Source: Elsinoe ampelina
Taxonomy: Eukaryota
Length of the DNA: 64,000 nt
Assembly: GCA_010093995.1 (NCBI GenBank)
Contig: ML992522.1
Span: 1 to 64,000, forward strand
Direction: 5' to 3'
Both the position numbers and the translations under genes were made by a program. The first letter of the stretch is position 1. Each line of letters starts with the position of its first letter. The notes below the pieces were generated by a model. The model ran no database searches. It had not been told where the DNA came from and was given only the letters and a program-made list of their open reading frames with translations. Positions 1-61,996 of the stretch are shown piece after piece.

Positions 1-427
1 TAATAAAGGAAAGAGAAATTATAAAGAGGCTAGTTAGATACTTATATCTCTTTAATTAAGACTTATAAGCTAGTCTATTTATATAAACAATAGCTGCCTA
101 GCTATTGTTAATAGTTACTATTGTTGCTAGTAATTATAAGCTAAACTAATAGTAAATTCTTACTAATAATTAGCTAACACTAACAATTATAAGCAATTAT
201 AAAGAGATAAAGTAATAAGCTAATTACTTTACTTACATATAACAGGACAGTTCTCTAGCTTTAATAATCTATACCAGAGGGAGAGTGTTATAATAGAAGG
301 CTAGTATAGCTTCTCTAGTACTAAAGAACTGGTACTAATGAGTTAGCGTACGCACAGTAGATAAATCGGTTATTGTAACTCTCTAAATGAAACACACGTC
401 TCTCGATCCGATTTGCTAGTTACAACA
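1..427 (+). mobile_element. RIP-degraded 3' end of an LTR retrotransposon (internal remnant, polypurine tract and 3' LTR)
   Basis: 1-~340 is very AT-rich and TpA-saturated with almost no CpG/CpA and no ORFs. Purine tract AGAGGGAGAG (276-285) is directly followed by TGTTATAAT (286); the segment ends GTTACAACA (419-427), whose reverse complement TGTTGTAAC matches the start with two transitions. Confidence 0.7.
286..427 (+). repeat. Putative 142-bp long terminal repeat (TG...CA, Copia-like TGTTG/CAACA termini)
   Basis: Terminal inverted repeat TGTT(A/G)TAA(T/C)...GTTACAACA, adjacent to a PPT. A second copy is not in the window. Confidence 0.6.
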
Positions 428-607
428 AGTGGGAGCGCCGCCCCGATCTTCGTTATGGAAACCTTAATCTCTAGTGTACTTAGCACGTTCTGTATTGACT
501 GACTGCTGCCGATATGCAATCCCTCGGAGACCGGTCCTTGCACGGTGCTACTGTATGATGGTCTAGCAATCGGCCCGCTTCTCTGCTTGCCAAAGCATCA
601 AGACCTT

Positions 608-677: not shown

Positions 678-1026
678 TAAGATCAAGCGGCGACACGTCA
701 AGCACTTTGAGGAGTGCTGCGAGCATCCTGTGTAAGACTCGTGACGAATACCGTATGTCGTCACACGGGAACCCATCTTGTTTTCATGCTCGTACTAACC
801 AACGGCACATGACGTCCCCTACTGTCTGCCGGGGATGATGAGCGTGCCATGATCATACTCGACAGTCACGCATTACGCAGATGTACGATTTGCAAATGAT
901 GGAGGATAGAGCTCAGATGGCCATGTCCCTACTACTAATCCTCTCGATTGAGTCGCGGACTCGCACAAACTATGTCAGTGTGACCGTTACATACGAAACC
1001 ACCCATCACGCATCTCGAATTTCGTC

Positions 1027-2823
1027 TCATGATGATCGACGTGTACAGCGAAGTCTCAAACCTTGTGGTTTTCGAAGAGCAAAGCCATTCCTATCTGTGA
1101 CTGGCAATCTCTTTATTTGCTCGCCTTGCAGATTGCAGACACTGTAATCAAACATCGAGATGAATGTGGCAATGATGACAGCATTTTCGATCTTTGCGAA
1201 CTAACATTCACGTCAGCAGGAAGATCGAACAACAATGACAGTCCCTTGTAGGACCTTCGGTAGACTGACCCGCATACCCACTACAATGAACAAGTCAGTC
1301 ACAAATGTACCATCAAACGGACGAGCGTAACACCGCAAGGTCTGGACTCACGACAAGGATGTCTACCATTTCCCCAGCCCCCGAAAGCATGAGGTACCCT
1401 CTTGTCTTCGGCTCGGTCTGGCAGATATCGTGCAGGGTCGTATTTTGTAGGATCAGAGTAAATGTCGGGATTCATGTGTATGTCGTCGATATGGAAAGCA
1501 GCATATGCACCCTTTGGGATGACATGTCCGGTACTTCCAATCTGTACGTCATGATCGCTGACATTCTTCCGAAACGCAGCTCCCACTGTCTGCAGGCGAA
1601 TAGATTCGTGTAGGCAAAGATTGGTGAGCGGGAACTCAGACTCCCAATCCTCAAGAGTCAGCGACTTGAGAACTTCGACGCTTGATTGAGAGGAGCTAGT
1701 GCGGTGTTTTGCCACTGCCGCATCTATCTCTACGTGAATCCTCTGCTGCCATTCCGGTTCTGTTGCAAGATAGCACAAGACCCAAGCGACGTTCATGCCA
1801 GAGTTCAGCAGAGCCGCAAGCAGTGCATTGATGACGTACTGAATCGCTGTCAGCGAACGATCAAGTTATACAGGTTTGGTTGGCTTGACTCAGGGAGATG
1901 GCCTCACGTACCAATACAGTCCTCATGATAGATTCACCGTCATCGATCAGCGTCTGCAATGTATCATCCTCGCGCCTGCCTGTCCGCTTCCGATCACGTA
2001 CAATGCGATTGATCAGTAGAAAGAAACGTGTTGACGCTAACAATCGTTTGATATGCTTTGTCGCAGGAAACCAGGGTATGATGATCTTCGCAGTGCTGTT
2101 ATTATCGTCAATGACTTCAACCAGACGAAGTGAATAGTCGAGAAGATCTGGAGCATCCGCTAGCTCCTTGACGCCCACCGTACGAAGGGTAAGAAGATAT
2201 ACTATACGATTCATCTCTACGAAAGGGTCCAGATAACCGACTGTACCGTCGTTGCATGCCAAAGACCTTTTCAGCGCTTGTTCAGTATCTGAGACTAAGT
2301 GTCGGAGGCTTCTGACAAGATTGTCTTTCTTCATGGTCTTGGTGATTTTCCTAGCGAACCAGGAGTCGAACTTGACACCATTCTCGGAGATATTAACTCC
2401 TGGTGTAGCGGTAAGGAGAGCCGCGTAGCTGGATCACCAGTAGGTAAGCGACTATTTCATGCCTCGGTATGACTTTGAAAGTCGTACGTACCCTTCGAAA
2501 AGGCTCAGCTCTTTGCTATCATAGAAAGCCTTGCGGCCTTCTGACCCGGAAAGACCAACGACCAGATACGGACCAACATAGAAGCTGTAGTTGCCAGTCT
2601 TCGATGCCTTCGAATTATCCTTGCAGAAGTCTGCCCGTGCAGAGAAGAATCGAAGGGCGCCAAAGATGGGAGTTTCCTCATTGATTCGAGGAGGAGCAAA
2701 CTTCGAAAGCGAAGACCTCGGGATTGTGCGAACCACCAGTCCGAAAATTGAAGCACACAGGAGTACCCATAGACTAGTCTCCCATCTAGGATACTGCACG
2801 AGAGTGTTGAAAGATGTGTCCAT
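1027..2823 (-). CDS. Cytochrome P450 (cluster tailoring enzyme, resembles the TenB/LepD type), ~506 aa, 5 exons
   Basis: Exons 2823-2492, 2428-1912, 1838-1352, 1280-1270, 1200-1027 splice in frame via GT-AG introns. N-terminal TM anchor, ExxR (ESIR), PxRY, heme motif WGNGRHPCLGMRFAKIE. The subfamily is a recollection-based inference. Confidence 0.92.
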
Positions 2824-3152
2824 GGTTCTGGATGCTGCTCCTTGCATCTCGCGAAGTGTTCGGATCTTAGGAGCGGTGTATTCTCCGCAAGTTGCGTAAT
2901 AGATGATAGGGGATATACAGATAGTGTTGGTGGTGATGACCGAGGTACTACAACTCCCGGTCATTGATTGCGTAGTGTTCTAGGGCAGATGTTGTTATCA
3001 TGACCCACATCTCGATGAGCTTGAGTCGTGGCAGATTCCCAAAAGGAGAATAATCATCCTCGCGCCGACTTAAAAGGTGGAAACTTGGCAACACATTTCT
3101 GGGACGTGCTTCGGATAAACAATACGAAATGAGAATCATCTGAGATGGTACA

Positions 3153-4300
3153 CTATGCAGTGATACGTCCAACAAGCTTCTTTCCAGAGACAGTGCCGCT
3201 CTTCAAGAGTCTCACTCCATTTGCAATACCATCAAGACCACTATCAAGAACCTGCAACGGATGGGGGCGCAATTTCCCTTGATCCAAGAGTTGCTGGAAG
3301 ATTTTGTACCAACGCACTGCGAAGTCGTGTGTCTCCGGGCTGGCTTTCCTTTCGTATCCGTTCCATAACGGGATCGGCTCTCCGAAGACATCCAATGCGA
3401 ATATCCAGTCGTGTTTGACCGCACGTCGCTTGGGCCTCATATCAGCTGGGCACAGTTCGAGAGTAGTGTAACGGCCTCCGGTCCGTGCAATGGTTGCGTA
3501 ACAGCATGCCACAGATAGATTGTCTGTCACGCAGTCAAGTGCGTATTCAAGCTTGTTGTTGGTGACTTGCCGGATAGCATCTGCGGTCTTATCATCTGCA
3601 TAATCGAAGACGTAAGAAGCGCCGTACTCCTTGACTAAGGAGAAGTTCTTGGGCGAACACGTGGCGATGGCTGTGTATCCGGAACTACGAGGGTCAGTGA
3701 TGTGTCCACGACTCGGACGGGATATACTGACAGCTTCAGTAGCTGTAGTACCATCGTGCCCGATGATGTGCTCGCTCCATAGACAAGTACATATTTCGGA
3801 ACACTTCCGGGATCTACAGAGTCATACGGTGTATGCGGTAGTCGCAGGGTGTACCACAGTGATAACGCGGCCGTCTGCAAGCTGACGCCAATCGCTGCAG
3901 CCTCCAACACATCCATATGCTTGGGTACCTTGTAGGTCAGTTGAGCATGAGCCCGCACATACTCGCCGAAGCCACCGTTTCCCGGATCGGAAGGGTTGGA
4001 GCCATGAACATATCCACAGACCAAGTCGCCGATGGCCAAGTCGGATCGTAGCTCGGCCACTGATATGTCAAGACTGACAATCCTGCCAACAAAGTCCGAG
4101 CCGATGATGGCACCAGGAGTGGGGAAGTTGCTGCCCATCTTGAAATCGCAAGGATTCACCGCGTTGGCGATGGTCTTGACGAGGACAGTCTTGGGACGCA
4201 GTTCGGGAACTCGAACGCTGTGATTCAGGACAGGTTGACCTGCATCGTCTTGAACGACTGCGGATTGGGTGTGGGGGATGGTCGCCGAGAGAGCTGGCAT
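3153..4300 (-). CDS. Trans-acting enoyl reductase (LovC/TenC-like MDR family), ~366 aa, 2 exons
   Basis: Exons 4300-3732 and 3684-3153. Motifs AVNPCDFK, GSDFVG, VLVYGASTSSG, ATCSPKNF, VSGKKLV. Lies beside a PKS-NRPS with no functional cis ER. Confidence 0.95.
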
Positions 4301-4973
4301 TTTCTGTCAACAATGGGACTCGCTAAGCAGCAGAGGTGAGTTTTAGCTGAGCGCGAGTGGCGGCAAGCGATGAAGAGGCGGTTCCCGGGCGAGCCTGTCA
4401 AGAAGGTGTACGTTGTCGTATTTCCTGCGTTTCTTTTATGTTCGAGATTCTGCAAGCATACGAGGTCAGTGGATGAGCTCGAACTGCCTTAGCATCGTCT
4501 TCGGCATCCTGGGCCCACATCGAATAGAATCATCCATTGCGATCCGAATTCGGAGAAACCCATCCATGCACGACAGAGTCTTGTGTGCTGCATTGTCTGG
4601 GCGACTCGACATTGTGTTTGCCACAGAGTCGAAGATGAAGCAGCCAGGAGTCAGGGTGGCCCTAACTTGCCCCGCCTTCAAGGTGACGTGGAGGATGCAT
4701 TGTATTAGATCAACGCTAACGGATCGATTCGACTGATCATTAAATTCCATCCATGACTCAAGTACACCCAAGGTAGGTTTGAAGTGAAGACGACCAAGGT
4801 GGGGCCGGTGGGCTCGGAAAACCCCGGAGGACCCCCTGGAATCTGCCGAAGTGGAGACGATCTTGACTTCGAGTCTTCTATCAAATGGCCCCGACAGCCT
4901 CAAGGCACTTGGAAGCATGTTTGATGAGTAGGGCATCATTGTTACATTATCGTTCAACGCGCCAACTCATCTT

Positions 4974-6849
4974 CTAAGCGAGAATGACCCTTTTGAGCCT
5001 GACGTAAGTGTCTTTTGGCTTGGTAGTGACGCCCATTTTGCAGCTGTAGCCGGAAAGGTCTTTTGGACAAGGCAGAAGCTCGAAATTCCACACAATCAAT
5101 GCGAAGATGATTTTGAGCTCCAAATAGCCGAGTCGTCTGCCGAAACACCCACGAATACCAAGCCCGAATGCAAGCATCGGTCCAGCGCCGCTGTCGAACT
5201 CACCATCCTGATGTAGACCAACTTTGCCGTCACCCAGTGGTACGAGCCATCTTTCTGGTCGGAAGGAGTCAATGTCGCGATTGTCCCATTCATTTCGCGT
5301 CTTTCCCTGTCGCTTGGCACCCTGGCAGCTCTCGCTTCGACGCGCTTCGTCAATCTCGAATCCGGGGCTTCTGAGACTGGGCCCTCCAGTTAGCATCAAC
5401 AACAAGGTGCCCTTTGGTATGGGATAGCCAAGCACTGTAGTGTCCACTACAGCTTGACGATCGAGTGCCGGGGTGGTGCCACTGTGACGCAGAATCTCTT
5501 CGATGACTGCATCAAGGTATGGAATGTTAGTTGTTGTGATCTCATCCACGGAGGGACCCCGATTCTCGGACCTAGCCCGCGTATAGCAACGTTGTAGGGC
5601 CGACCGAAGCAGGCTCTGAGACTCTTGGTTATCGGCGAGTTTCTTCAAGCCCCACAGCACGGTGGTGCTGGTTGTGTCGTGACCACCAATGACAAAACCA
5701 AAAGTCTATATCGAGTCAGCGCACCATGTCACATCCTGGCTGCACATCCGAGTAGCTCACCTCTACCATCATCTTTGACGAGAAGAACTGGGGCTCGCGA
5801 TTCTCCTTGGTGGCCAAATCCTTTTCCCGCTGTACCATGTGGTCGATAGCAGACCGAACACGTGGATCTCCCTCAGCGTTGCGTTCCTGATCGCAGGTCT
5901 CCTCCCTCTTCATATGTTCCAGGGCCTGCGATAGCTCCTTGCGTATATATTTGTCTTTGATAGTCAAAGCTTTTCGAAGATGCGGCCGAAGCTTGACAAG
6001 AATCCACTTCAGCCAGACTACTGGTGATCCCTGAACTTCCTCCACAGCTGCTGTCAGATCGAGCGTTGCCCTAATCACCTCAGGGAGCTCTGCCTCGGGA
6101 AAATCCATGGCCTCTTCAACGTTCTCCGAGGCTGCAGCATCCAGCATGGGATCGACAGAGTCTTGTGCGATCGATTGCAGCACCTCTAGTTTCGGACGCG
6201 TTGCATTATACTCGAACTCGCTGCCAAATGCGAAGGCATTAACGCCATCTAGAGCAGTCGTGTAGATATCGTCCTGGGCGCTGAAAGGTTTCCCGGCCGC
6301 CAACTTGGCTTTGAGTATCCAGAGACTTATGAGGACAGAAACCGCTCTATGCACCCCTGGCGCGGCGACGTTGTTCAGGAATCCTGGAGACATCAAGTTG
6401 TGTAGGAGGTTCCGATGAGCCTTCCAAGTGGCATTGGTAGGTTGGCCGAGGTGATGATCTGGGAGTAATCCATTCATGACCTCTCCAAGCATGTCCGATC
6501 TATCCCAGTCCTTGCTCCGCATCAAGATGTCCTGAGATTCGCGAAAGTCCCCCAAGATGATGACCGGTTTAGAGAAAGGACGTATGAATACTTGCATGAT
6601 GGGAGTTTGGAGCTCCCTCATTTGCTCCTGGATCCATTGCATGTAGGTCTTGCCTGACCTGGATGTGCCATCAAGTAGATCAGGAATATCGCCAAAGATG
6701 TTGCGAACGGCTGCGCTTCGGTATGGAATGCCTGGAATGGGTTTTGGGAGCAGCTTTTGACGGAGTAGACGAACAAAAAAGATCAATGGTACCAGGACCA
6801 TGAGAAATGTTTTCCAAAATGGAATTAAGTGTAGAGTTGTCGGGACCAT
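4974..6849 (-). CDS. Cytochrome P450 (resembles the TenA/ApdE type), ~606 aa, 2 exons
   Basis: Exons 6849-5761 and 5705-4974. TM anchor then LPKPIPGIPY, I-helix GGHDTT, EEILR, FRPERW, heme motif FGLGIRGCFG. The subfamily is a recollection-based inference. Confidence 0.93.
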
Positions 6850-7255
6850 CTCTGGTTGAGTAGAAGCCAGAATTCCACTGCGTGACTGAAGAAACTGACA
6901 AGATAGATGTAAGGGACGAACAGTCTCAAGGATGGACACCGACTGAAACTACCGATAGAAGAGCCATTTTGTTGTTTGCAAGTGAGCCTCCATTAACTTG
7001 GTCAGATCTGACGAAGCAGAGCGGGTCCACGCTTGGAAGCCCTGACCTTGACAGATGGTGCAACATGTCACTATGCATGACGGTGACTCGTGACATAGCT
7101 TTGATCAGGAACTGATTGATTGACTTTCTCTTGCGTGGGTATTGGCTCAAGGCCACGAAATAACAACAAGAGAGAACCCTTTGGTATGTAATTGCTTAAG
7201 TAGTGAGTGTTTGTCTTGAAACTCGATCTCACCTCAACATCATCATACTCGCAAA
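6850..7255. promoter_or_regulatory. Putative bidirectional promoter between the P450 and the PKS-NRPS
   Basis: 406-bp gap between head-to-head start codons. No specific motif identified. Confidence 0.55.
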
Positions 7256-10200
7256 ATGACTGCTCAGAACCAAGAAGCCATCGCAATCATTGGCAGTGGG
7301 TGTCGCTTTCCAGGTGACACAACCACCCCTTCCAAGCTCTGGCAGTTACTGCAGGACCCAAAAGATCTTCGGATTCCAGTTCCGCCGTCACGTTTCAATG
7401 CTGCTGGATTCTACCACAAGATTGCGTCCCATCACGGGCATAGCAACGTCAAGGATATGAAGTCATACTACCTATCAAACGATCCCGTGGAACGTTGGTT
7501 CGATGCGCCTTTCTTTGGTATCAACGCAGCAGAAGCCAACGTGCTCGATCCCCAACTTCGACTTCTTATGGAGACTACTTACGAGGCCCTTGAGTCTGCT
7601 GGCCTGCCCATGGAAAGTCTCCAAGGATCCGACACCGGGTGCTATGTCGGTTTGATGATAGGTGAATATGAGCAGTTCATGATGCGGGATCCCGAGAGTG
7701 TTGGGCAGTATCATGTCATGGGCACTGCTCGGAGCTTGATGGCGAATCGATTGTCTTACTTTTTCGACTGGCACGGCCCATCCATGACGATTGACACTGC
7801 TTGTAGTTCAAGCCTCGTTGCCATTCACCAATGTGTGCAGCTGCTCAGATCCGGACAATCTAGGGTAGCTATCGCAGCTGGATCGAATATGATCTTGGAC
7901 CCCATCACCCACATCAGTGAGAGCAAATTATCAATGCTCTCACCAGATGGTCAGAGCCGGATGTGGGACGCTGGTGCCAATGGTTATGCTCGAGGCGAAG
8001 GTGTTGCAACCATCGTTCTGAAACGTCTTAGCGATGCCCTAGTCGACGGAGATCAGATCGAATCAATCATTCGAGAAACAGGACTGAACCAGGATGGAAA
8101 GACTCGAGGTATCACGCTGTAAGTGTAGATGCAAAGGACCACGTGCAAAGAGAAACGCTGAAAGTATACCAGGCCCAGTGCGACAGCACAGACAGCCCTG
8201 ATACAATCCACCTATAGCAGAGCCGGATTAGGCGTCACGAATCCTCTGCAGAGACCGCATTATTTCGAAGCTCATGGGACGGGAACACCAGCAGGCGATC
8301 CAATTGAAGCTGAGGCCATCCATGCAGCCTTCTTTGACAGACCGTCAGGGACTCTTGATACCGACCATGAACCGCTCTACGTGGGCAGTATCAAGACTGT
8401 CTGTGGGCATACTGAGGGCACGGCAGGTATAGCCGCCGTTCTCAAAGCATCTTTGGCCATTCAGAACGCGGTCGTGCCGCCCAATTTACTGTTCGAGAAG
8501 ATGAACCCCCGAATCGAGCGCTTCAGCGAACATCTTCGTGTACCCACGTCACTCCTACCCTGGCCCTCTACGCACGGTCAGCCCCGTCGCGCAAGTATCA
8601 ACAGGTGAGGATATAGGCCCAGTAGGCGAAACAATCTACTTACAAATTGGCCAGTTTTGGTTTTGGAGGCGCAAACGCTCATGTCATTCTCGAGTCTTGT
8701 GCAGAGCAAGCACCAGTCCCAAAAGTGGATCATCGACCAGTACCGGTACCTTTCGTCTTCTCCGCTGCTTCTGGCAAGTCCTTGCAAAGCTATCTCAAGA
8801 AATTCGCGGAATATGTGGCCATCAATAGGGAGGACGTTAACCTTGATGACGTCGCTTTCACTCTGCACAGCCGCCGAAGCCGTCTACCACTTGCCACATC
8901 TGTGGTTGCTTCCGGAGTCGATGATCTATTGTCTACCCTTCACGAAAGGATTGAAGTGGGGGCTCTTGCACATGCCTTTTTGCAGCCTAACGACACGCCT
9001 GGTAGCGTCATCGGTGTCTTCACTGGTCAGGGCGCGCAATGGCCAAGGATGGGTGTCGAGCTCTTGACCAGATGTCCAGCGGCAACAGACATGTTTGCGA
9101 CTCTGGAAAGCCGTCTGGACCGATTGCCGATCGCTGACAAACCTTCTTGGTCGTTGAGAGATGAGTTGGAGCGCACTGCCGCTGCGGGGTCTCGTGTTGG
9201 AGAAGCCGAGCTGTCTCAACCTCTTTGCACGGCAGTCCAACTCGTCCTCGTCCATCTCCTCCGTTCCGCAGGCATCACATTCGATGCAGTGGTTGGTCAT
9301 TCTTCTGGAGAAATTGCGGCCGCTTATGCCGCCGGGATAATATCTGCCGAGGATGCCATCTGCATCGCCTACTACCGCGGATTGCATGGCAAGCTTGCCG
9401 CCGGCGAAGATGGCTGGGAAGGTGCCATGTTGGCCGCCGGCATCACTCCAGATGATGCAGCGGAGCTTCTAGAATCCGATGTATTTCGCGATCGTGCGAA
9501 CATCGCGGCATACAATTCGTCCAACAGTCTGACACTGTCTGGTGATGCTGATGCCATTGAGGAGCTCAAGGAGATTCTGGAAGATGAAGACAAGTTCGCC
9601 CGTACCCTCAAGGTCGAGAAAGCGTATCACTCTCATCACATGAGACCCTGTGCAGTCCCGTATGCTACATCTCTCAAAGCCTTGGAGATCCAGCTTCATG
9701 CACCCAAGTGCACTTGGATCTCGAGCGTCTCAGGCAGAAACATTGTCGATCACGGCCTGGAAAACATCAAGGATCAGTATTGGGTGGACAATGCCACCAA
9801 ACCAGTTCTTTTTATGCAGGCATTGCAACAACTATGTCGCACCAATGACGCTTTCGACTGCAATCTTGCTATTGAGATTGGACCCCACCCAGCATTACAA
9901 GCGCCTGCGACACAAACTCTCAAAGAGACAACCGGTAGGTCCGTACCATATACCGGCCTTCTCAAGAGAGGGACCTCAGATACTCTCTCCGTTGCTGCGG
10001 GACTGGGATTTGCTTGGATGCATCTCCCTCGAGGGACAATTGATCTCAATGCTTATCATCACTTTTGCTCCGATGGGACATCTCCTCGATTAGTCAAGGA
10101 CCTTCCCACATACTCTTGGAATCATGAGAACGAATATTGGCACGAGTCGCGATACACAAAGTCTGTCATGACCAGGAGGAAACATCACGAGCTACTTGGA

Positions 10201-13200
10201 CATACTACTGCCGACGTTACTATGGACAACGAGTTGAGATGGCGGCAGATTTTATCGCCTTCGGAGATACCTTGGCTCAATGGACACCGTCTACAGAACC
10301 AGATTGTATTTCCCGCGGCTGGCTATGTGGTGTTGGCTGTCGAGGCTGCTCGAGAGCTCCTGAGCTTGAGGCCAGAATGCGGTCCCGCAGCATTGATACA
10401 TGTGTACGACATCAACATCAAGCAAGCCATGACTTTCGACAGTGAGGATTCTAGAGTGGAGGCCGTCTTCTCTCTTCTCGGTATCAAGCAACATGAGAAC
10501 ATCGTGTCTGCCAATTTCGGGTATTCTGCAGCTTCGATAGGTACGAATCACAAAGCAGAGAACAGCTCACCGCTACGTCCTCTAGTCACTGGGCATTTGG
10601 AGATCACACTTGGCAAACAAGATCCAGATGCTCTTCCGACTCGTAGCTGCCAACCAGATCTCTTGTTACCGGTCAAAGCCGAAGACTTCTACGAATCTCT
10701 TCAGAAGATGGAGTATGACTACACTGGGCCATTTCGAGCTTTATCGAATCTTCAACGCAAGCTGGGAACGGTTACTGGTTCGGTTTCAACCGAGGATGAT
10801 CCCGAATCTGAACTCCTCGTTCAACCCGGTATGTTGGATGCTGCGTTTCAGGCTGTCCTTTTGGCCAAAGCAGCACCATACGACGGCGCCCTGTGGAGTA
10901 TGCATGTTCCGAAGACCATTGACAGAGTTACGATTAATCCAATTGCATGGGAGCTGTACGAAACCAGAGGCAAGCTTCTTCCGCTTGAAGCCTATCAACG
11001 ACACGGATCGTCCTCCAGGAGCTTCAAGGGAGACGTGGATATTTATCCAGAAGCGCCACGTGCAGGTGGCAGTGCCTCTCATGCACTCATACAGGTCGAA
11101 GGACTTGATTGCGTACCATTCTCTCCAGCTACAGTCCAAGACGACAAGGAAATTCTGTCAACCATTGTTTGGAAACATGACTTCCCCGATGCTACGAAGG
11201 CGGCCCACGATCTCAGCTTCACCGCTGACCCAAGTGAGCTCGAGCTCGCATACTATCTTGAGAGGGTATCGTTCTACTATTTACGCAAGCTGGAAGAGTC
11301 AATTCCTCAGGATGACGTTGTCCGCCGTGCCGATCATCCCTTGAGCAATCTTTTCTCATTCGCAAGATATGTTGGGCTTCGAGTTCAAGACGGGAAACTT
11401 GCTTTCTGGAGGAACGAATGGTTTCAAGACACTCGAGAAACTCTTCTCGCTGCATCTGGACCCTTTGCCCATGTCGCCGACTACAAACTCTTGACAAGGA
11501 TCGGCGAGAACCTACCAGACATCGTGAAAGGGAGACTGACAGCAATTGAGGCTGCACGAAAAGATGATCTCCTCAACGAATTTTACCCGGTTGCTCTCGG
11601 CATGGCATATCACACGACCTATCTCGCAAGGACGGTCAAGCAACTCACACACAGATTCCCACACCTCAGAATACTTGAGCTGGGAGCAGGAACGGGCAGC
11701 GCCACCAAAGCCACTCTGGGTCTAATTGGGGACGACTTTGCATCCTACACTTTCACTGACATCTCTTCTGGTTTCTTTCCGAAAGCGAAAGAGTTCTTCG
11801 ATAGTACGCCGTCGTCCTCCAGAATATCCTACAAGATCCTCGACATAAGCAAGGACCCAGAGAAGCAGGGCTTTGTGCCGCAAGCTTACGACCTTGTCAT
11901 TGCTTCGCAAGTTCTACATGCCACTCCCGTGATGGAAAACTCCATCAGGAATGTACGAAGCCTGCTCAAGCCTGGCGGGTTCCTGGTCGTCAACGAAGGC
12001 ATCAATAATGAGACTGCACGACTGGGCACCATATTTGGTGCATTTCCTGGCTGGTGGCTTGGAGCTGAGAACGATGGTCGACATCTGGGTCCCAATCTCG
12101 CTGTCTCCGAATGGGACAAACTTCTGCGTTCAACGGGCTTCAGTGGGGTGGAATCTTCGGTGCCCGTGGTCGACCCACTCCTGACACCGAATACCGTCTT
12201 TGTGTCGCAAGCTATTGATCGGCGCATACAATTCATCCGCGAGCCTCTGGGGCAATCTAAAAACATTGATGCGGCATCTGAAACCGCACTGCAAAACGTC
12301 CTGCAAGAGCTGATCATCATCGGGGGAAGTACACCCATGACTTTGAACGCCATAAACGGCCTGAAACCACTTCTCCGAGATCATTGTGGTGCATTAATTC
12401 ACTACAACACTCTGGCTGAGCTTGAACACTCTGGTACCCGAATGTCTCAAGGCACAACAATCTTGAGTCTTTCTGATATTGATGAACCTCTTTTCGAGAA
12501 TCTCACCGACCAGTCTTTACAAGCATTCAAAGATATCCTTCACGCCGCCGGGTCAGTATTTTGGGTGACGCAGGGAAGATATGCTGCCAATCCAACAGCT
12601 AATAGTGAGTGATACTATCTGAGTCTTTCACGGAACACAAATGCTTCAGGCAAGTGAAACGGCGCTGACATTTATCTACAGTAACCATTGGAGCCGTCCG
12701 CACCGCAATGCTGGAGATCCCAACTCTGTCATTCCAGTCACTGGATTACGAGGATACAAACGACGTCGATTCTGCCCGTATTGCAGAAAGCTTTCTTCGA
12801 TTTGTGGCTGGCGTGGCTTGGATGCCCCGCAAAGGAGACCAAGAGAGCATGTTCCCTATGCTTTGGACTGTGGAGCGAGAAATCATCCAAGACCAGACTG
12901 GCCAATCGCTAATCCCACGGGTGATTCCTGAGAAGAACATGAATGACCGGTACAATTCGGCGAGACGTAGCATTCTCCGCGACGTCCCCATAGAAGATGG
13001 AGACGATGAAGTCTGTATTGCTGTTGCATCAGCTGGAGACAATGAACACGTTTCGCTGGAGCAAGTTGAGTTGCAAGCTTCGTCAAGCATGCTCCGGCTA
13101 TCCTGTTCAATTTTACTGGCTCAGCGGATCCACGGTCTCGGTCACGTCTACCTCTGCCTAGCCAAAGACACAGACGGCGAGTTGCGAGTCATCCTCTCGG

Positions 13201-16200
13201 ACAAGGTCACATCGGTCATACATGCTCACGATAGCCTATCGGCGGTCAGCATTGATCAAAGAAGCTTTGGACTCGATGGCTTGGGGGCAGGTCCTCGCTT
13301 CCTCCATCTGGTGTCCACCAACTTGCTGGCAATCGAAATAGTCAACGAGCTTGCTCCTGGTGATCATCTTGTTGCATACGAACCCGATCTCGAGTTTGCG
13401 AATATCCTCAAGAGAGCGGCCAGATGCTCACAAGTGAATATCACGATTGTGACAGCAGCATTGAGTCAAGAACGTTGTCAGCGTCTTGGATGGCACCGGA
13501 TTCATCCTCAATCATCCACTCGTAGCATTCAGACATACCTCCCCGACCAAGTCTCCCTCTTTCTGGAATGCGGACATTCGCAACCATCGACCTCTCCAAC
13601 CTTTTCAGCACGCATCCGCTCGGCCCTCGGCACTGAATGTAGGGTCGCTATGATGACTGACTGGCTCGCGACGATTGCCACGAAGAGAAAGCTTGCATCA
13701 GCCACAGATGATAATGCTATTGGCGATCGACTGCGACTAGCTGTCGACCGAGCTCAGCACGATCGCTTTAGTTCAAAAGTGGATATCCAGACAGTTTCTG
13801 TTGGCCGGGTGAACGCTCTCTCGGCCACATACGATGAGATCGCAAGAAACTGGTGCAAAGCCCCGGTAGTCATGGAGTGGGAAGGTGTTCTCCAGGCTTC
13901 GGTCAATGTACGACCTATCGACCATCGGAATCTTTTCTCGCGGCAAAAAACATACTGGCTTGCTGGACTCACCGGCAGTCTCGGTGCGTCACTTTGCGAA
14001 TGGATGCTCAGCCACGGTGCTGAAACCATCATCCTGACCAGTCGTACTCCAAAGATGCCATCTACTTGGTTGGAAAGAATGTCCCGACTTGGAGGATCAA
14101 TTCACGTGCATTCAGTGGACTTGACGAATTTCGAACAGACCGAGGCCTTCTACAGAGACATGTCCTCTGTCCTACCTCCCATTGGGGGTGTAGCTTCTGG
14201 TGCCATGGTTTTGAGAGATACAACATTGAGGAATATGACTCTCGATGATATGCAGCAGGTCTGTCGGCCAAAGGTGTTAGGGACTTCAAACCTTGACAGG
14301 CTCTTCTACGGCCAGAACCTCGACTTTTTCATCGCTTTCTCTTCCCTCACAGCAGTGACCGGGAACCCCGGCCAATCCAATTACTCGGCTGCGAACCTGT
14401 TCATGTGCAGTCTTGTCGAACAGCGTCGGCGGCGTGGACTTGCTGCTTCAGTCATTCACATTGCCCCCATCTTGGGCGTTGGCTATGTCTCGGAGAAAAG
14501 CGACAGAACTAAGACAAATTTCCCTCGCACATCTGGCTACTCTCTCACTGCGGAGCAAGACTTCAGGCAGCTCTTCGCAGAAGCCGTGGTCGCTGGTAAA
14601 GATTTGAACAGATCTTCAGGACCTGTTGAGATTGTTCTAGGTCTGCTCAAAGTAAGTCCGAACCCGGAAAAGTTGCCTTACTGGTTCGAAGATCCCATGG
14701 CTTCCCATTACATACGCAACGGTGATACCGCGGACGTCTCCAAGACGTCCGCCGCAAAGACCTCCACCAAGGCAATGCTTGCATCTGTTGCGACCCGCGA
14801 GCAGGCGGTCAAAGTTCTGACAGATGCCATTAAGCCTTTCATAGCTTCCATGTTCCAACTTCAGGGCGGCTCTGATCTCGATGATGCCGACTTTCTTGGT
14901 CTCGAACTGGATGATATCGGCCTCGACTCCCTTTTGGCAGTGGAGACCAGGACCTGGTGGCTGAAGACTGTTCAAGTCAACATTCCCGTGATGAAACTAT
15001 TGAGTGGAATCTCAATAGGGCAGCTGATATCTATAGCAATAGACAGCTTACCTCCCGATCTCGTACCCCATCTAAGCAACAAGGCTTGCCCGACTGATCA
15101 GACACCCGAGCCCTCGAAGCAGGTAGTACAGATGACGGACAGCAATGCCAGTACCTCAGATGACAGCAGCTTGAAAAGTAGCAGTCACACAAGTCTCCAT
15201 GATCCGACGGCAGAATCCACCCCCATATCTATCGGGACACCTGATTCTGAGCCTAGAATCGACCCAGACTCCAGCGTGCCCAGTCTCAGTATCTCGAAGA
15301 GCCCGGATTTGAGCGTCAGCAGAGTCCAGAAACTACTACCAGAGCCGGAAGTGGAGCGATGGGTGGACTTATCATTTGGACAAATGACGTTCTGGTTTGT
15401 GTTGACGTTCCTGGACGATAAAGCTGGACTGAATCATACGGGGTTGTTCCGCTTGACCGGGGCGCTCGATGTGACAAAGCTAGAGCGATCGGTGAAACTA
15501 TTGGGACAACGCCATGAAATACTGCGCACTTGTTTCGCAGACATGGATGGCCGTGTGAAACAAGGTGTGATGCGGGACAGTCGACTCGCTCTGGAATGCC
15601 GGACCATCTTGCATGAGAGGGATGCATTTGCTGCCGCGGAGGACTTACAGAGCTACAAGTGGGACTTTGCTCAAGGAGAATCCCTACGCATTATTCTGTT
15701 GGAGTTTGGTCCGCGGGACTACTTTCTCCTTTACGGAACCCACTCACTCGTATTGGACGGAATATCAGGTACAGTGCTGACTCGAGAGCTTTCGCGGCTA
15801 TACACAGAAGAATCGTCGTCTGAGGAGGGTCTCACTTTGATCCAGTATCCCACATACGCAGAATCACAGATCAAGGCACTGGAATCCGGCAAATTCGAGG
15901 CGAGTCTACGTTTCTGGAGGGAAGAGCTTGCATCATGTCCACCTCCTTTGCCGGTACTTCGCATTGTCGATGTCATCAATCGTCCAGTACAGAGACGATA
16001 TGATAACCAAAGGGTTGATGCGTGGATCGACGGAGCGACAAAGGCTCGTATTTGGGCTATCTGCCGACAGCAGAAGATTCGACCATTCCATTTCTTCCTC
16101 ACCGTTTTCCGTGCTTTACTATCCCGACTGGCTGCCACAGAAGAGCTTTGCATAGGAATCGTGGATGCTAACAGATCTCACGAGGGAGCCTTGCAGAGCT

Positions 16201-19200
16201 TGGGTCCGTTCATCAACCTCTTGCCTCTCCGATTCTCAAACAGCGCACAGCAGAACTTTGGCGCAGCTCTCAAGCAAACCAAGAGCAAGAGCGATTTGGC
16301 ATTAACACACTCAGATGTACCATTCGAAGCGATCCTCAATGAGTAAGTTCACTCACTCCTCCGACTCCCCCAGAGGCTGATCTTCAGTAGTCTTGCTATT
16401 GCCCGTTCTTCTACCCATGCCCCCATCTTCCAAACTTTCTTCGATTATCGCCAGGGCATGAGCAAAAAGCAGCAATTTGACGACTGCGAACTCGAATTGC
16501 TGTCTTTCCAGGCTTCCAATGTGCCATACGATGTCTCCATGGACATCAGCGATGACTCCATCAACGGAGAATGCCACTTGATGCTTATTGTCCGGGAGGA
16601 TATGTATTCGAAGAAACATGCGGAGCTTTTGCTCGGTTGTTATGTCAACCTCGTCGCATCTTTCACCGAAACTCCGACTTCCTCGTTCGGTGATGCACAG
16701 ATCTATGACCCCCGCGACATCGAACGTGCGCTAGCGTTTGGCATAAGTAAGTGAGCACGGAGAAACCGCCATGCGATGATCTGAGAAGTCTGACCATAGA
16801 TTACCACTAGATGACGCCGTACCCTCAAAATGGCCATATGAGTCAGTCCTCGATCGCATACTCGACATCGCAAAATCCAGCCCACAAGAAGTTGCAATCA
16901 AATTGCCTTTCAATGGCGATTCGATGACTTACCAAGAGATGTCTGACAAGGCTATGGGCATCGCCTGCGCTCTTCGAGAACAGGGATGTATCAAGGGATC
17001 CGTCGTGGCAACGTTTCAAGAAGCAACTCCTGACTGGCTTGCATCCTTACTTGGTATTTTCAGTGTTGGCGCTTCTTACGCACCTTTCGATGGTAGCACT
17101 CCAACGAAAAGGCTGCTGGACATGGTCGAGGATTGCAAGGCCTGCATTGTTCTTGTGGACAATAAAGTCAGTCAGGAGACAGTCAAGGCTTTGGATTCTG
17201 GATCGCGGCGCAAGCTCATCAACGTGGCTCACATTCGATCCAAAACAACATCCTCTGGGACGACTCCAGTATCTCTGTCTGCAGAGGATCCAGCCATGAT
17301 ACTGTACTCCAGCGGATCTACAGGAGTACCCAAGGGAATCGTCCTCAAACATGGTGGACTACGAAACTGGGCAGAATTCATGCCAGATCTCTACAGGTCA
17401 GGGCAACGGGATACAGTACTCACACAAAGCTCTTGCGGCTTCGACATGTCGTACTTGCAGGCTTTCTTTGCACTTTGTCATGGAGGAACGGTGTGTATCT
17501 GTCCTAGGACCTTGCGAGTCGACGCCAAAGCCATCACGAACATCATCGCAGACGAGGGAGTGACTGTCACGTGTGCAGTACCCTCCGAGTATACCAACTG
17601 GTTGAGATTTGGGGACCCCGAGGCACTCGCCCGTTGTACGAAGTGGAGGACTGCCATGTGCGGTGGTGAGCCAGGTACGAATGTGGTACTGGAATTGCAA
17701 GCATCCCTCGGTCCTCAGCCCAGATCAAGATTCTTCCACATCTATGGCCCAACCGAGATTACATTCATCACGACTGGTATGGAACTGTCGTACGGGAGTG
17801 GTGAAGAAAGTCCTGCTGTTGGAGGACCATTCCCTAACTACTCGGTTTACGTCCTTGACGAACAGCTCAAGCCTGTACCACCGGGCGTTCAGGGCGAGAT
17901 CTATGTGGGCGGAGCCGGCGTCGCAACCGGCTACCTTGAGAATGCCAATCTCACCGCCGAAAAGTTCTTCTCCGATCCTTTTGCGCCACCTTCGTTCGTG
18001 GCAAATGGATGGACTACCATGCACCAGACCGGAGATAACGGTCGGTGGCGAGAAGACGGTGGTCTCTTGATCGAAGGCCGCAAGGCTGGGGACACACAGC
18101 ATAAGCTCCGGGGCCTTCGTATTGATCTGCAGGAGATCGAGCATGTCATCTTACAGGAGTCGCAAGGACTGTTGAGCGATGCTGTTGTATCGGTCCTTCG
18201 TCCATCCGCTCAAAGACCCGAATTTCTTGTAGCGCACGTCCGATTCGATCCCACGCTCAATCTACTTGACGCTCCACGGAAGCAGCTTCTGGACAAGCTA
18301 TCATCGGGACTTCCACTACCACAATACATGTGGCCAGCTGTGATCGTTCCTATCAATGAATTACCATTCACGGCCTCTGGAAAGCTCGATCGAAGAGCAG
18401 TCGCAGCTTTGCCGCTTCCGGATTCATTGCAGCGTGACAATAAGCCGAGTGATGACGATTTGATCACTTTGACGGAGACCGAGTCTCAACTCAAGCAGCT
18501 GTGGGAAGAGATCATCTCTAGGGATATCACGAAGCTTCATCGCATCGGACCAGACACAGACTTCTTTCGAGTAGGCGGGACCTCGCTACTTCTCCTACGA
18601 TTGCAAGCACAGATCAGGCAGAAATTCGGCCTCGTCATCCCTTTCGTAGAGCTATTCGAATCGTCCACACTCAGCGCCCTATCCCTTCGGATCGAGAACA
18701 AGGGCAAAGCCCCAGAGGCGAAGACGTTCAGCTGGGACCGCGAAACTTCAATCCCCGAGCCCATCCTCGACCATCTCGCCAGCGCGAGTGCCCCTCCTCC
18801 TGACGCCTCCTCCAGGACAGTCATCTTGACCGGTAGTACTGGTGTTGTAGGACGCGCTCTCCTTGCCTCTCTCATCGCGGACCCTGCAATCCACACTATC
18901 CACTGCATCGCCATTCGCGACCTCTCCTCGCGCCGAGCTCAACTACCGACGCACGCAAAGGTCAAACTCCACGAAGGCGATTTGACTCGGCCTCTTCTCG
19001 GTCTGCCCCAATCGGCAGCCGAGTCTATCTTCTCCTCGGCCGATCGCATCATCCACAACGGAGCCGACACCTCCCATCTCAAAACCTACCATTCCCTCCA
19101 AGCTGTGAACCTCGGAGCCACAAAAGAAGTCGTTTCGCTCTGTGTTCGCTTCGGGAGGCTGATTCCCCTGCACTACGTCTCTACGGCAAGCGTGTTACAA

Positions 19201-19800
19201 TATTCCGGTCTCGAAGAGTTCGGGGAGGAGTCGGCGGCCAAGTATCCCCCTCCCGTCGATGGTTTGGACGGTTACTCTGCCTCGAAGTGGGCGAGCGAAG
19301 TGTTCCTCGAGAAGCTGAAGGACAGTCCCGGCGGCGAGGCGTGGGGGTTATGGGTGCACAGGCTGAGTTCCGTGCAAGGAGCCGAGGGTGATGAGATGGG
19401 TGCCTTGGAAGTCATACCTAACTTGTTGAAGTACTCGAGGGCGGCAAAGGCGGTGCCCAGCACGGGGAATCTGAAGGGGTGGATCAATCTCGTGCCGCTG
19501 CGACAAGCGGTCGTGGGGTTACAAGGGGCTTTGCGGGAAGAGCCTTGGACGGAAGCGGTGAGGTTCAAGCATGAGATTGGGGACGTCAATGTCCGCATGG
19601 ATGGGATCAAGGACTATATTGAACGGGAGACGGGATCAGAGGCGAAGGTCCTGGAGATGGATCAGTGGGCGAGGTTAGTCCAGGGATTGGGAATGGATCC
19701 GTTGCTGGTGGAATTCTTCCTGAGTCTAGTCAAGTCTCCGAACATGGTTTGGCCACTGTTGAGCAAGAGACGGGAGCAGGGGCAAAGACCTGAAAGGTAG
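7256..19800 (+). CDS. Hybrid highly reducing PKS-NRPS (KS-AT-DH-cMT-ER0-KR-ACP-C-A-T-R), ~4083 aa, 6 exons
   Basis: Exons 7256-8118, 8173-8604, 8655-12604, 12682-16342, 16391-16746, 16811-19800 total 12252 nt in frame. [60 protein letters not shown] and [59 protein letters not shown] and YSASK. Confidence 0.97.
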
Positions 19801-19954
19801 ATGAGTAGACGAGTTTTGGACTGGGTTCGGTAGAGTTCTTCTTGGGTATCGTAAATCCTCTGAATGTACTCCAGCAACCGTCAAGGCAAGGTAATCATTA
19901 TCCCGATGACACAGAATGTGATATGATTGGCCGGTGTGAGGTTGCCTAACACAG

Positions 19955-20240
19955 ACGGGAGAGGTACATCCATCCATTGACATTGTTCGTGCTGGGCCAG
20001 GCATCGAATTCGAATACATTGCCATCCGGCAAAATGGCAGACTGCCGGTTACCACGGTGGGAAGAAACGGACTCTTCGAGCTCAATCCTTCCAAAGTCGA
20101 CGATGCTGAACGGATTGCGAATATCTCGTGAGTGGTATCCTTCACCGGCATCATCGAAGTCTCTCGAGACTTGTTCGCGGTCGTCGGGGCGACTATACTC
20201 ACTTTTCTTGCTGATAAACATGGAACAATGGTCATTCATT
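19955..20240 (+). pseudogene. Remnant of a fungal six-bladed beta-propeller gene (SMP-30/TolB-like; AsR5/EupF-type family)
   Basis: One frame reads GPGIEFEYIAIRQNGRLPVTT...LFELNP...IANIS*VVSFTGIIEVSRDLFAVVG, with an in-frame TGA at 20129-20131. This resembles the family pattern ENIAVRxNGxLLVT...GIxExxPDxFAV. Similarity is lost after ~20240. Confidence 0.5.
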
Positions 20241-20673: not shown

Positions 20674-23505
20674 TCACATGGTGTTGACACTCAGTTCATT
20701 ACCCATGTAATCGTGGCTGTGAGTATTCGAGAGTCCAAATTTGGCAAACATGTCTTCGTCATCGTTGAATGTCATGCAGATACCAGAGTCGTCAACGTCT
20801 CCCTTCTGTTGTGACTGGGAGAAGTCGGTCTGATTCTCCTTGGCTGGTGAGATGTCAAAGTTGAACGAAGGAGGAGATTGGAAGAGCGTCTGCTGCGGTA
20901 GCTGCTGATGTTGCTGGATCGGCGTCTGCTGCGGCTTTGATTGAGGCTGCGGAACTTGCTGCTGTGCTTGATGGTAAGAATTCTGCCTGCTCAGTGGCTG
21001 ACGAGTGCTGGCTTGGCTCAGTTGACTTCCATTGATCGATGTCTCGAAGGATTGCTGGAATCCCTGGACTGAGTGGACCGAGTGAGTGGAGTGAGTTCGA
21101 GACACTGCAGGATCGTTAGCAAAAGCATAATGAAAAGGGCTACTAGTCATACATAGCGGAGCATTTGCATGGTTGTGCTGCTCGGTCTGGCCATTGTTGG
21201 CATTTTGAGGAAGACTGTTGTCACCGTCGATACTGCTCATTCTACTGGCAGTTGCGCTGCGGGAGCTGTTGCTGCGCTGCATTTCACCACTGGTGATGGC
21301 CGAAGGTGCTTTTGTCGAGATCGCAGAGTTCTTGGACTCTCCAGGGACTCGCTCGAGAAAGCCGCCCATTCCGGCAAGCCACAGCGACATCTCGTCGACA
21401 AAGATCTTCATGACCCACCAGGTCTGATAGGAAGCACCGCCCATGATGGTAATGTCCCGCAATGCTGCAGTGCCGACAGACGAAATGCAATGAAGCAATG
21501 TGCGAGTGTTGGCTTGTGGAAACCGAGAGGGTAGGGTGCCGAGGAAGGAAGCCCATCTGTCGAGAACATTCTCGGTCGAGATGGACTCGCCATGTTCGTT
21601 TGTGGTTGTGGATCCCGCAGGACCAAAGCTATTCTGGCTGACGCTATAGGCCTGATTGTCGAACGAGAACATCGGGTTGTCGGGGAATGGCGGCGCCTGA
21701 AGCGGCTCGAGCAAGCTTCTGATATCGCACGTCAGGATTTTGTAGACCTCGTCGTATCCACAGTCCGGCAGCTCAGCCTCCATGACTCTTTTCGGGTTGA
21801 CCATTGTCACCCACTCTCTCCACATCTGTTCGCGGTTCTGGTCGATGGTGAGCAGATTTGCTGCGGCGTGAGCAGCAGCGTTGACGCGGATGAGTCGGTG
21901 CAGCAGACTGGCAAATGTGGCAGCTGGCTTTAGCTTGGCTTGCAATACATGCTGAGGATGTGCTTGAAATGTCTTTGAGATGTGAGCGTGAAGATTGGTC
22001 GAGATGTTGTTCAAAATGGTGATGACGATAGGCGGCGCAGCTTGAAGCGTGAGCCTCGAGACGAACCGCACCATCTTCTGGTACATGAGATAGTCGCATT
22101 CCTGGATCCATTGTGCGAGATCGGGATGACTGAAAAGCTTCTGGACTGGGACGGTGAGAGTACCGTGGAAAGATGTGAAGAGGCGGAAGAACTGCTTCTC
22201 CTTGCAGAAGCGAATACAGTCGATGAGTGAAGTACAGTGTGTTCGGTACAAAGCGAGAAGCGCATCGGCAGTATCAGTGTCCGTTTTGGGTGGGCAGTGC
22301 GGGTGGATGTTTGGTAGAGCAATCGAATCATCCCCATCGATGTCGCCAATTGGTCGCAGCGGGAAGCGGAGCGCTTGCTCGTACATCAGTGAGCCATCGT
22401 TGTCCTGTTGCATGCCTCGACTGTCAGGGTAAGCAAACAGTCTGCCTTGCGATGGTGGGCCTCGATTATCTGGAATGGGTGCGGGATCAAAGTCGAGGGA
22501 TACATCTGCCGCAGGGAAAGCAGCACTGTCGGCATTGAAACGTGGACCAGATCTACATGACTGTCAGCAGGAATTGTGATCATCATCGACAAATGAGTGC
22601 TTACGCAAAGTCTGCAGGTACGCTTGCAGACGCGCTCCGTCTGAAGTCGTGTAGGGAGTCACCCATGATGCTCTGGCTCCCTCCTTGTGGGGCAGACTCC
22701 TCCTCATCGCAAAGGGCAAGGTCGACATAGTGGTACTTTGACTCCCCACGGACCCCAAGTCGGCGAGTCTGAATGCCAGGGAAGATGACACGTACAAGCT
22801 TGCCGAAAGATGCTGGGTTGAGAGGGACGACTCGCTCAGTGCCGCACCTAGTCGCATAGTGAGAGTAGACTCTGTTTCTGGGAACAGATGTCTTGGCCGG
22901 TTTGCAAACCTTGCGAAGCCTTTGTTGTGGTCAGCATAACAAGACTGCAAACAGCTCCAGCACACCTACCAGAGCATCGCAAACAGCTGCTTCGTTTTCT
23001 CTGCCTGAGGCGTCCTCTCCTTCTGTATGACCTCTTGCGCCACTTCTTTGAGGCCTCTAGTCTCATTCCTTGCGAGCAATTCCCTCAACTCCTTGTCGTT
23101 GGTCGCAGTGGCAGCAGAGTTCTTCCTTCGTCGATCTTCGTGTTCGATACCGGGTGCCATGGCATGTGCAAATTGCATTTGAGCAAAAGCTGGATCCTGC
23201 ATCATGAATTGTCCCTCTTGTGGGGTGAATGGTCGTGGAGCAAATTGATCCATGTTTGCTTGCATCTGCTGGGCGGCAAGATGCTGTTGCATGACTGGAT
23301 CCATGGTCATACCGTTCTGTGCTCCAGCATATTGCAAGAGGGCCGCCTCGGGACCTGATGTCATAAAGTTCTGCTGCGCGTACATCTCTTGAGGAATCAT
23401 CTCTGGTGCTGGCGAGGCGGCGCTCGTTGTCGATGCTCGCGAGTCTGGTCTGTGCATGCTTCGTATCGAATGGCTCGATCTGCTGCGGTTCATGTGGAAA
23501 GCCAT
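20674..23505 (-). CDS. RFX1: RFX-family winged-helix transcription factor (Sak1/CPCR1/RfxA-like), multi-exon
   Basis: Spliced DNA-binding domain VPRNRVYSHYATRCG...LNPASFGKLVRVIFPGIQTRRLGVRGESKYHYVDL; conserved ALYRTHCTSLIDC region; Q-rich C terminus. Confidence 0.93.
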
Positions 23506-61984: not shown

Positions 61985-61996
61985 TGCGTCCTAACA

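Follow-up and report, generated by a model that had tools for sequence, protein, structure and literature searches.

The 64,000-nucleotide window analysed here (positions 1 to 64,000 of contig ML992522.1, assembly GCA_010093995.1) comes from Elsinoe ampelina, the cause of grapevine anthracnose; elsinochrome pigments are made by Elsinoe. Four intact genes lie at positions 1027-19800 of the window, as found from stop-to-stop open reading frames (ORFs) and Pfam scans: two cytochrome P450s (P450-A and P450-B), a trans-acting enoyl reductase (ER) and a hybrid of polyketide synthase and nonribosomal peptide synthetase (PKS-NRPS). Joining the ORF pieces through canonical GT..AG introns gave four open gene models, and together they are a four-gene secondary-metabolite cluster of ~19 kb. 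It is an orphan cluster of a known kind from an uncharacterised clade. The genes and their parts are:

2823..1027, minus strand: P450-A, 506 residues, 4 introns
2823-2492, 2428-1912, 1838-1352, 1280-1270 and 1200-1027, minus strand: exons of P450-A, 1280-1270 being an 11-nucleotide micro-exon
1299-1865, minus strand: Pfam p450 match in P450-A
4300..3153, minus strand: ER, 366 residues, intron 3731-3685
3635-4306, minus strand: Pfam ADH_N match in ER
3153-3821, minus strand: Pfam ADH_zinc_N match in ER
6849..4974, minus strand: P450-B, 606 residues, intron 5760-5706, heme motif FGLGIRGCFG
4974-5705, minus strand: Pfam p450 match in P450-B
6850..7255, no strand: divergent intergenic region of 406 bp between the start codons of P450-B and PKS-NRPS, presumed from these coordinates to be a shared promoter
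7256..19800, plus strand: PKS-NRPS, 4083 residues, 5 introns
7256-8118, 8173-8604, 8655-12604, 12682-16342, 16391-16746 and 16811-19800, plus strand: exons of PKS-NRPS

To assess whether these models are used, contigs from four public runs of three studies (run type on record: guessed RNA) were aligned to positions 1-20000 of the window. Their depths are unusable for ranking expression. Eight of the 10 predicted introns are exactly removed; because the contigs are without exactly these introns, we conclude that the four genes are expressed and that their splicing follows the models. The joints seen are:

1838|1912, P450-A, four of four runs
2428|2492, P450-A, four of four runs
1201|1352 with 10 letters between (the micro-exon), P450-A, four of four runs
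3684|3732, ER, four of four runs
5705|5761, P450-B, two of four runs
12604|12682, PKS-NRPS intron 3, one of four runs
16342|16391, PKS-NRPS intron 4, two of four runs
16746|16811, PKS-NRPS intron 5, three of four runs

One 10,180-nucleotide contig of run X1 spans 9267-19635 with PKS-NRPS introns 3-5 removed. The first-pass annotation, a reading of the letters of this DNA, had proposed the same four genes splicing to intact frames, and the Pfam matches, gene models and spliced contigs all bear it out. The heme motif of P450-A is FGGWGNGRHPCLGMRFA, and its heme signature, FGGWGNGRHPC|LGMR|FA, is split by two introns, the first of which divides the Cys codon. The micro-exon at 1270-1280, confirmed in all four runs, completes the codon of the heme-ligand Cys with its final base and then encodes LGMR.

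Gene models for the cluster are already in NCBI, where those for the synthetase and P450-B are imperfect. The synthetase exon coding for A-T-R is 99% identical to the NCBI E. ampelina protein (P0001), and over the full length our model differs from it at 16 positions, all of them gene-model choices. Six are at the start, and the other ten correspond to 17776..17805 on the plus strand, a 30-nucleotide coding stretch that the NCBI model splices out as an intron. Since 13 of 13 homologues in the alignment align with this stretch, the closest ones with similar residues, and the X1 contig continues across it unspliced, the NCBI model is in error at this point. For P450-B the NCBI model (P0259) is shorter, with 593 residues instead of the 606 modelled here and 96% identity over exon 1. 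A separate X1 contig, 771 nucleotides long, skips 76 nucleotides at 8568-8643, inside the KS-coding region; the ends of the skipped piece read CT..AC on the plus strand, so that seen from the minus strand it is a canonical GTAAGT..TAG intron, and removing it would disrupt the sense frame. These features point to an antisense transcript, itself spliced, that covers the 5' part of the synthetase gene.

The synthetase holds the order KS-AT-DH-cMT-(no ER)-KR-ACP-C-A-T-R in one spliced ORF, as is characteristic of fungal highly reducing PKS-NRPS hybrids. Pfam matches span 7220-19800 on the plus strand and comprise ketoacyl-synt (N- and C-terminal parts), Acyl_transf_1, PS-DH/PKS_DH_N, Methyltransf_12, KR, ACP, Condensation, AMP-binding, PP-binding and NAD_binding_4. 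The domains and motifs, all on the plus strand, are:

7274-8494: KS, motif DTACSS
9016-9984: AT, motif GHSSGE
10186-11046: DH (Pfam)
11674-11985: cMT (Pfam)
13950-14471: KR (Pfam)
14898-15050: ACP (Pfam)
from 15363: C (Pfam)
15738..15761: C3 motif THSLVLDG of the C domain, residues 2768-2775, in which Ser2770 stands for the second His of HHxxxDG
16870-17937: A, Pfam core
18487-18684: T (Pfam)
18826-19497: R (Pfam NAD_binding_4)
18829-18852: NADPH motif TGSTGVVG of the R domain
19273-19287: YSASK, holding the Tyr and Lys of the R domain

The active-site motifs of KS, AT, ACP, A and T are all present, GGTSL among them, and FDMS was also found. The Pfam scan gave no ER family match between cMT and KR. 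The separate ER gene has the marks of a LovC-type trans-acting enzyme: a medium-chain dehydrogenase fold, LovC as its best solved relative (3b6z, E 8e-23) and a place beside a highly reducing synthase without an ER domain. An ER-less synthetase together with a LovC-like gene implies the usual trans-ER pairing.

A full-length search, from which the best 120 relatives were taken, had its nearest entries in Melanomma pulvis-pyrius (63% identity), Sphaceloma (Elsinoe) murrayae (60%), E. australis (69% over a truncated model), Bogoriella (56%), Biscogniauxia (55%), Fusarium oxysporum f. sp. raphani (54%), Diaporthe eres (53%), Colletotrichum sublineola (51%) and C. orbiculare (50%). The sole named, characterised proteins among these 120 are CcsA (A1CLY8, 40%), FfsA (39%) and PhmA (41% over 63% of the query). 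The cluster had been called an orphan from its letters, and it remains one: no named, characterised protein among the best 120 exceeds ~40% identity, and the accessions of four orthologues are absent from the literature searched.

We then placed the window protein in a tree with 112 of its matches (FastTree, LG+gamma, 3784 trimmed columns, midpoint root), which left out P0001, models shorter than 3600 residues or without the KS motif (that of E. australis, for example) and extra members from the cluster look-up. It falls in a core clade of 9 tips (support 1.0) within a superclade of 58 tips (support 1.0). CcsA, FfsA and PhmA lie across the midpoint root from this superclade, in a remaining grouping that is weak (0.39). 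In the published phylogeny of 884 hybrids, the pyridone clade Ia-D is defined by TenS, ApdA, LepA and IccA (Minami et al., 2020; PMC7421883), and the entries of its Table S3 used here file PNS19188, EFQ35223, EXK77811 and TDZ13320 as 'Clade Ib, not classified'. The synthetase thus falls outside the pyridone clade on the strength of that table, our own tree holding no pyridone synthetase. It belongs to an uncharacterised lineage that is patchy across plant-associated Dothideomycetes and Sordariomycetes.

The C domain departs from those of the characterised relatives. Its C3 motif, THSLVLDG, aligns with YHHINMDG of CcsA, FfsA and PhmA and, by HMMER, with YHHIIMDG of PsoA (PDB 9x2c), so that the 'atypical' condensation motif remarked on in the first-pass annotation can be specified as a replacement of the second His by Ser. 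All nine core-clade members share this Ser. Across the superclade the second His is missing in 39 of 58 members (HS in 25, HP in five, LP in two and seven variants once each), the Asp-Gly of the motif is kept in 58 of 58, and outside the superclade 55 of 55 tree sequences keep the second His. The redundant set of 125 sequences divides into 62 with HH, 37 with HS and 26 with other pairs. Among solved structures the best match to the C domain is PsoA (E 2.9e-48, 323 residues), followed by the CON domains of LovB and MokA, which have HR for HH.

Elsewhere the NRPS module is intact. Compared with seven orthologues, the protein shows 53-64% identity in C, 55-72% in A and 47-53% in R, as against 53-69% in DH and only 36-44% in the linker; the module is conserved like the PKS domains and is not decaying. 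Motifs A3 and A10, Asp235, Lys517 and the T-domain Ser are all in place and, because Asp235 and Lys517 are kept, the A domain is predicted to activate an alpha-amino acid. Its pocket reads approximately D-M-L-?-M-G-I-F-I-K, with nine positions read by motif anchors and position 278 blank; it is hydrophobic, nearly constant across the core clade, and unlike the pockets of CcsA (D-M-S-?-V-G-C-F-C) and of FfsA and PhmA (D-I-S-?-M-G-A-L-A).

The terminal domain bears on how the product would leave the enzyme. An intact NADPH motif and a Ser-Tyr-Lys triad distinguish a reducing R domain from a Dieckmann cyclase in the rationale set out in the part of Song et al. (2015; PMC5667575) drawn on here, which also describes release by CcsA as predicted to be reductive. 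Since the domain keeps TGSTGVVG and YSASK, we read it by this rationale as reducing; of 125 aligned sequences, 124 have both this Tyr and this Lys. Reductive release is therefore favoured, from the motifs, over tetramate or pyridone formation, and the tenellin-like chemistry envisaged in the first-pass annotation (a tetramate or pyridone) fits poorly with such a domain.

Counterparts of the remaining genes recur beside or near some orthologous synthetases, as read indirectly from the order of accessions and locus tags. Orthologues of P450-B are 51-76% identical and immediately adjoin the synthetase in five species or formae:

C. graminicola: P450-B EFQ35224, PKS-NRPS EFQ35223, adjacent
C. sublineola: P450-B KAK1959952, PKS-NRPS KAK1959951, adjacent
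C. caudatum: P450-B KAK2053095, PKS-NRPS KAK2053096, adjacent
F. oxysporum f. sp. raphani: P450-B FOQG_17496, PKS-NRPS FOQG_17497 (EXK77810/11), adjacent
F. oxysporum f. sp. pisi: P450-B FOVG_18234, PKS-NRPS FOVG_18233, adjacent
E. australis: P450-B PSK38493, PKS-NRPS PSK38495, two accessions apart

The best full-length relative of P450-A is S. murrayae PNS19185 (68% identity); the synthetase PNS19188 follows three accessions later, in keeping with the order P450-A, ER, P450-B, PKS-NRPS. For EFQ35223 and TDZ13320, the entries consulted in Table S3 (PMC7421883) record a trans-ER beside the synthetase and no hydrolase, Diels-Alderase, aldolase, transaminase or Ib-type P450. The gene set may vary between species, as the only P450-B relative seen in Melanomma is 33% identical and on another contig.

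Neither P450 is close to an enzyme of solved structure: the nearest in PDB are distant and generic (CYP2, CYP21 and CYP17 for P450-B; CYP51 and CYP120 for P450-A), and a protein atlas labels P450-B only as 'Cytochrome P450'. Two F. oxysporum orthologues of P450-B (P0267/P0544) carry the UniRef name 'Cytochrome P450 monooxygenase TRI13', given automatically by similarity. A metagenome scan with exon 1 of P450-B returned zero matches, and one with a 12-sequence P450-B alignment returned 80 loci. In four of these (L002, L005, L010 and L022) a PKS-like match of 26-49% identity lies near the P450; there the P450-B family members are 36-44% identical and stand ~4-6 kb from the PKS-like genes, and the KS of L010 is 49% identical to that of the window. 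The P450-B family thus seems broadly tied to polyketide clusters. None of the four PKS-bearing loci holds an ER or a convincing P450-A, and the metagenomes yielded no orthologous cluster.

Taken together, the best overall explanation, to which we give a probability of roughly one half, is that the cluster directs the synthesis of a reductively released PKS-NRPS product that is tailored by P450s. In this scheme, whose chemical steps are deduced from the domains and genes, the PKS and the trans-ER would build a C-methylated, partly reduced polyketide chain, and the A domain would activate a hydrophobic alpha-amino acid. The C domain would join the two despite the lost second His. Reduction by the terminal domain would then free the product as an amino-aldehyde or amino-alcohol amide, perhaps with ring closure to a pyrrolin-2-one, and P450-A and P450-B would oxidise the product. 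If the superclade without the second His does still condense, it would do so by a His-independent C-domain mechanism, and the compact cluster, with neither hydrolase nor cyclase nor regulator close by, would lead to an undescribed class of hybrid scaffold; this further proposal is tentative, and we think it rather unlikely.

Several points weigh against the scheme of reductive release and P450 tailoring. At the level of the gene model, PKS-NRPS introns 1 and 2 (8119-8172 and 8605-8654) show a joint in none of the four runs and rest on restoration of the frame, agreement with the NCBI model and an unbroken KS alignment. The left border of the cluster lies beyond view, because the window opens inside a repeat block. 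That Dieckmann domains are without the Tyr rests partly on PMC5667575 and partly on general knowledge of these enzymes. Condensation is not assured, since the second His of HHxxxDG is generally regarded as catalytic in the part of PMC11731387 used here, a source that also cites TwmB as an active C domain without it. Finally, clade Ib, to which the orthologues belong, holds tetramic-acid formers (Minami et al., 2020; PMC7421883), and in the scheme of that paper, as far as drawn on here, a place in clade Ib with no Knoevenagelase beside the Colletotrichum orthologues would imply Dieckmann release. The last point leads directly to the logic of tenellin biosynthesis, in which Dieckmann release yields an acyl-tetramic acid that one P450 expands to a 2-pyridone and the other N-hydroxylates. 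The gene content here equals the tenellin core as the first-pass annotation gave it; the characterised members of clade Ib make tetramic acids, and the Colletotrichum orthologues have no hydrolase beside them. Of that core, the sections of PMC7421883 consulted document only the trans-ER and the P450 expandase for the pyridone clade. The likeness stops at these gene types, however, and does not extend to the clade of the synthetase, the release domain or the relatives of the P450s. Four orthologues are in clade Ib and TenS is in Ia-D, as the annotation had foreseen in calling the synthetase a non-tenellin one. The terminal domain keeps TGxTGxxG and the Tyr/Lys pair, and TenA-type chemistry is disfavoured because ring expansion has a tetramate as its obligatory substrate (PMC7421883) and the release domain looks reducing. 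The suggested resemblance of the P450s to TenA and TenB also found no echo: neither name occurs among the best 120 relatives of P450-B or the 10 best of P450-A, and the flag 'TenA like expandase', used elsewhere in Table S3, is not set for EFQ35223 or TDZ13320 in the entries used. The idea of an N-hydroxylated, iron-chelating product likewise is unsupported, and we regard a tenellin-type pathway as improbable.

Two other accounts concern the extent of the cluster and the state of the NRPS module. A hydrolase, a Diels-Alderase, a transporter and a regulator might be encoded beyond the AT-rich block on the left, as in cytochalasan-type clusters, in which case the cluster would not be compact. 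The window opens inside that block, the NCBI contig is 117,773 bp long as against the 64,000 bp window, and the named relatives nearest to the synthetase belong to large clusters. AT-rich blocks with the look of repeat-induced point mutation (RIP) nevertheless often bound clusters, and the order of accessions in S. murrayae agrees with a set of these same four genes. In the Table S3 entries used here, the two Colletotrichum orthologues whose flanks are long enough also have no hydrolase or Diels-Alderase gene, and we consider a larger cluster possible but doubtful. Alternatively, the C domain might be dead, the NRPS module adding no amino acid and a plain polyketide being released in some other way, as the Ser in place of the second His and the ranking of the LovB/MokA-type CON domains (HR) next after PsoA could suggest. 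It would then be hard to see why C, A, T and R have stayed as conserved as the PKS domains in the seven orthologues, with the core motifs of A, its Asp235 and Lys517, the T-domain Ser and, in 58 of 58 superclade members, the Asp-Gly of C3 all retained. A dead C domain is accordingly the least probable of these accounts, and very unlikely.

The reading of a reductively released, P450-tailored product can be set against several known systems. CcsA, FfsA and PhmA resemble the window synthetase in domain order, in their dependence on a trans-ER and in an R domain that carries both the NADPH motif and the Tyr/Lys pair. Reductive release, predicted for CcsA, is likewise expected of FfsA and PhmA. 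All three differ from the window synthetase in lying outside the superclade, in having YHHINMDG and in their A pockets, and cytochalasan-type clusters have hydrolase and Diels-Alderase genes, neither of which stands beside this synthetase within the window. The tenellin cluster (TenS, TenC, TenA and TenB) shares the four gene types, a cMT domain and the need for a trans-ER; this is a likeness of gene types only, set apart by the published table, the motifs and the names: the window orthologues lie outside clade Ia-D, the release domain looks reducing, and no TenA-like expandase is flagged. A further precedent, compared by description, is the pnlt cluster of Penicillium citrinum, with PnltA (PKS-NRPS), PnltB (trans-ER), PnltC (P450) and PnltD (regulator), which converts scalusamide A to penicilactam A and is a compact case in which the product is released reductively, no hydrolase being involved, and then tailored by a P450, according to the portion of PMC12076214 used here. 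It differs from the window cluster in having one P450 and a pathway regulator, and homologues of PnltC are described there as rare and mostly from Penicillium.

With respect to the C domain, the second His is also replaced in TwmB, in PfaA-C2 (HP) and in the CON domains of LovB and MokA (HR). The window domain differs from all of these in having Ser, and in sitting within a complete C-A-T-R module rather than in a truncated hybrid or tandem-C enzyme. PsoA, the pseurotin PKS-NRPS (PDB 9x2c, 9x29) and its best solved match, differs in its canonical YHHIIMDG and in belonging to clade II-D with a Knoevenagelase (Minami et al., as consulted; PMC7421883).

What sets the locus apart is the loss of the second His throughout a clade in a complete, conserved module that is transcribed in Elsinoe ampelina. 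The clade is a natural setting in which to ask whether a complete fungal hybrid requires the second His of HHxxxDG to form the amide, and a small, transcribed, RNA-checked four-gene cluster is a convenient entry by heterologous expression into a clade left unclassified among 884 hybrids. Were His-independent condensation and a new scaffold to prove true, the product might matter in grapevine anthracnose; otherwise the cluster is one among many orphan fungal clusters. No PKS-NRPS product is attributed to Elsinoe in the literature searched, nor does any paper there treat this cluster, though the search is weak, being blind to spellings with diaeresis and to subscription journals. In the part of PMC4936691 that was available, Elsinoe ampelina appears only as a tblastn match to another PKS, and the window cluster is not discussed there.

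The surroundings of the cluster contain the following features:

1..428, no strand: AT-rich RIP-like repeat block, GC 0.26-0.32, in which the window starts
20674..23556, minus strand: RFX-family gene at the right border (Pfam BCD_RFX, E 4e-24, in 20674-22563)
57364-58327: Abhydrolase_3 gene, the only hydrolase in the window, ~38 kb off
63350-63901: Fungal_trans gene

Both flanks named in the first-pass annotation, a RIP-like element on the left and an RFX gene on the right, are present. Bases 1-300 are RIP-like (GC 0.26, TpA/ApT 1.71, (CpA+TpG)/(ApC+GpT) 0.50), and the bin 1-667 is of high depth in X1. All four runs have contigs that run out of the window at 427-430 and continue into three distinct sequences, one of them common to X2 and X3. 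The block fits a RIP-degraded dispersed repeat, dispersed because the contigs diverge here into different flanks. On the right, ORFs neighbouring the RFX gene gave no family matches, and further out are housekeeping-type genes (striatin, Bmt2, GidA/MTO1, MIF4G and a kinase). Pfam scans of 1-24000, a range that excludes the flank left of the window, found neither a CcsE/PyiE-like alpha/beta-hydrolase nor a Diels-Alderase. The statement that no transcription factor or hydrolase lies in the window is thus right for the neighbourhood of the cluster and wrong for the window as a whole, where the Abhydrolase_3 and Fungal_trans genes lie ~38-44 kb from the cluster, behind housekeeping-type genes.

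We saw no link between the cluster and the metabolic genes at 28-64 kb. A multicopper oxidase is encoded at 28437-30641 and a BBE-type FAD oxidase at 44345-45655, and a second metabolic group at 57364-63901 comprises the Abhydrolase_3 gene, a flavin or Baeyer-Villiger-type monooxygenase, a short-chain dehydrogenase/reductase and the Fungal_trans regulator.

Three observations concern the sister branch of the synthetase tree. TtcA (the triticone/curvupallide synthetase) was considered as a relative of the Pyrenophora members of this branch and dropped; going by its description in the part of PMC6915911 used here, it is without a cMT and belongs to a 20-gene, 52-kb cluster. The sister-branch synthetase of Pyrenophora teres f. 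teres is found in neighbouring entries (P0121/P0246 and P0252/P0256; CFE70_002795/002796 and PTNB73_10222/10223), which points either to tandem duplication or to one gene split between two models. Also within this branch is a protein of Pseudocercospora eumusae (P0123, 44%), which may be a candidate for the uncharacterised 'Hybrid8-3' synthetase family of banana Sigatoka fungi, as that family is described in the portion of PMC4936691 consulted.

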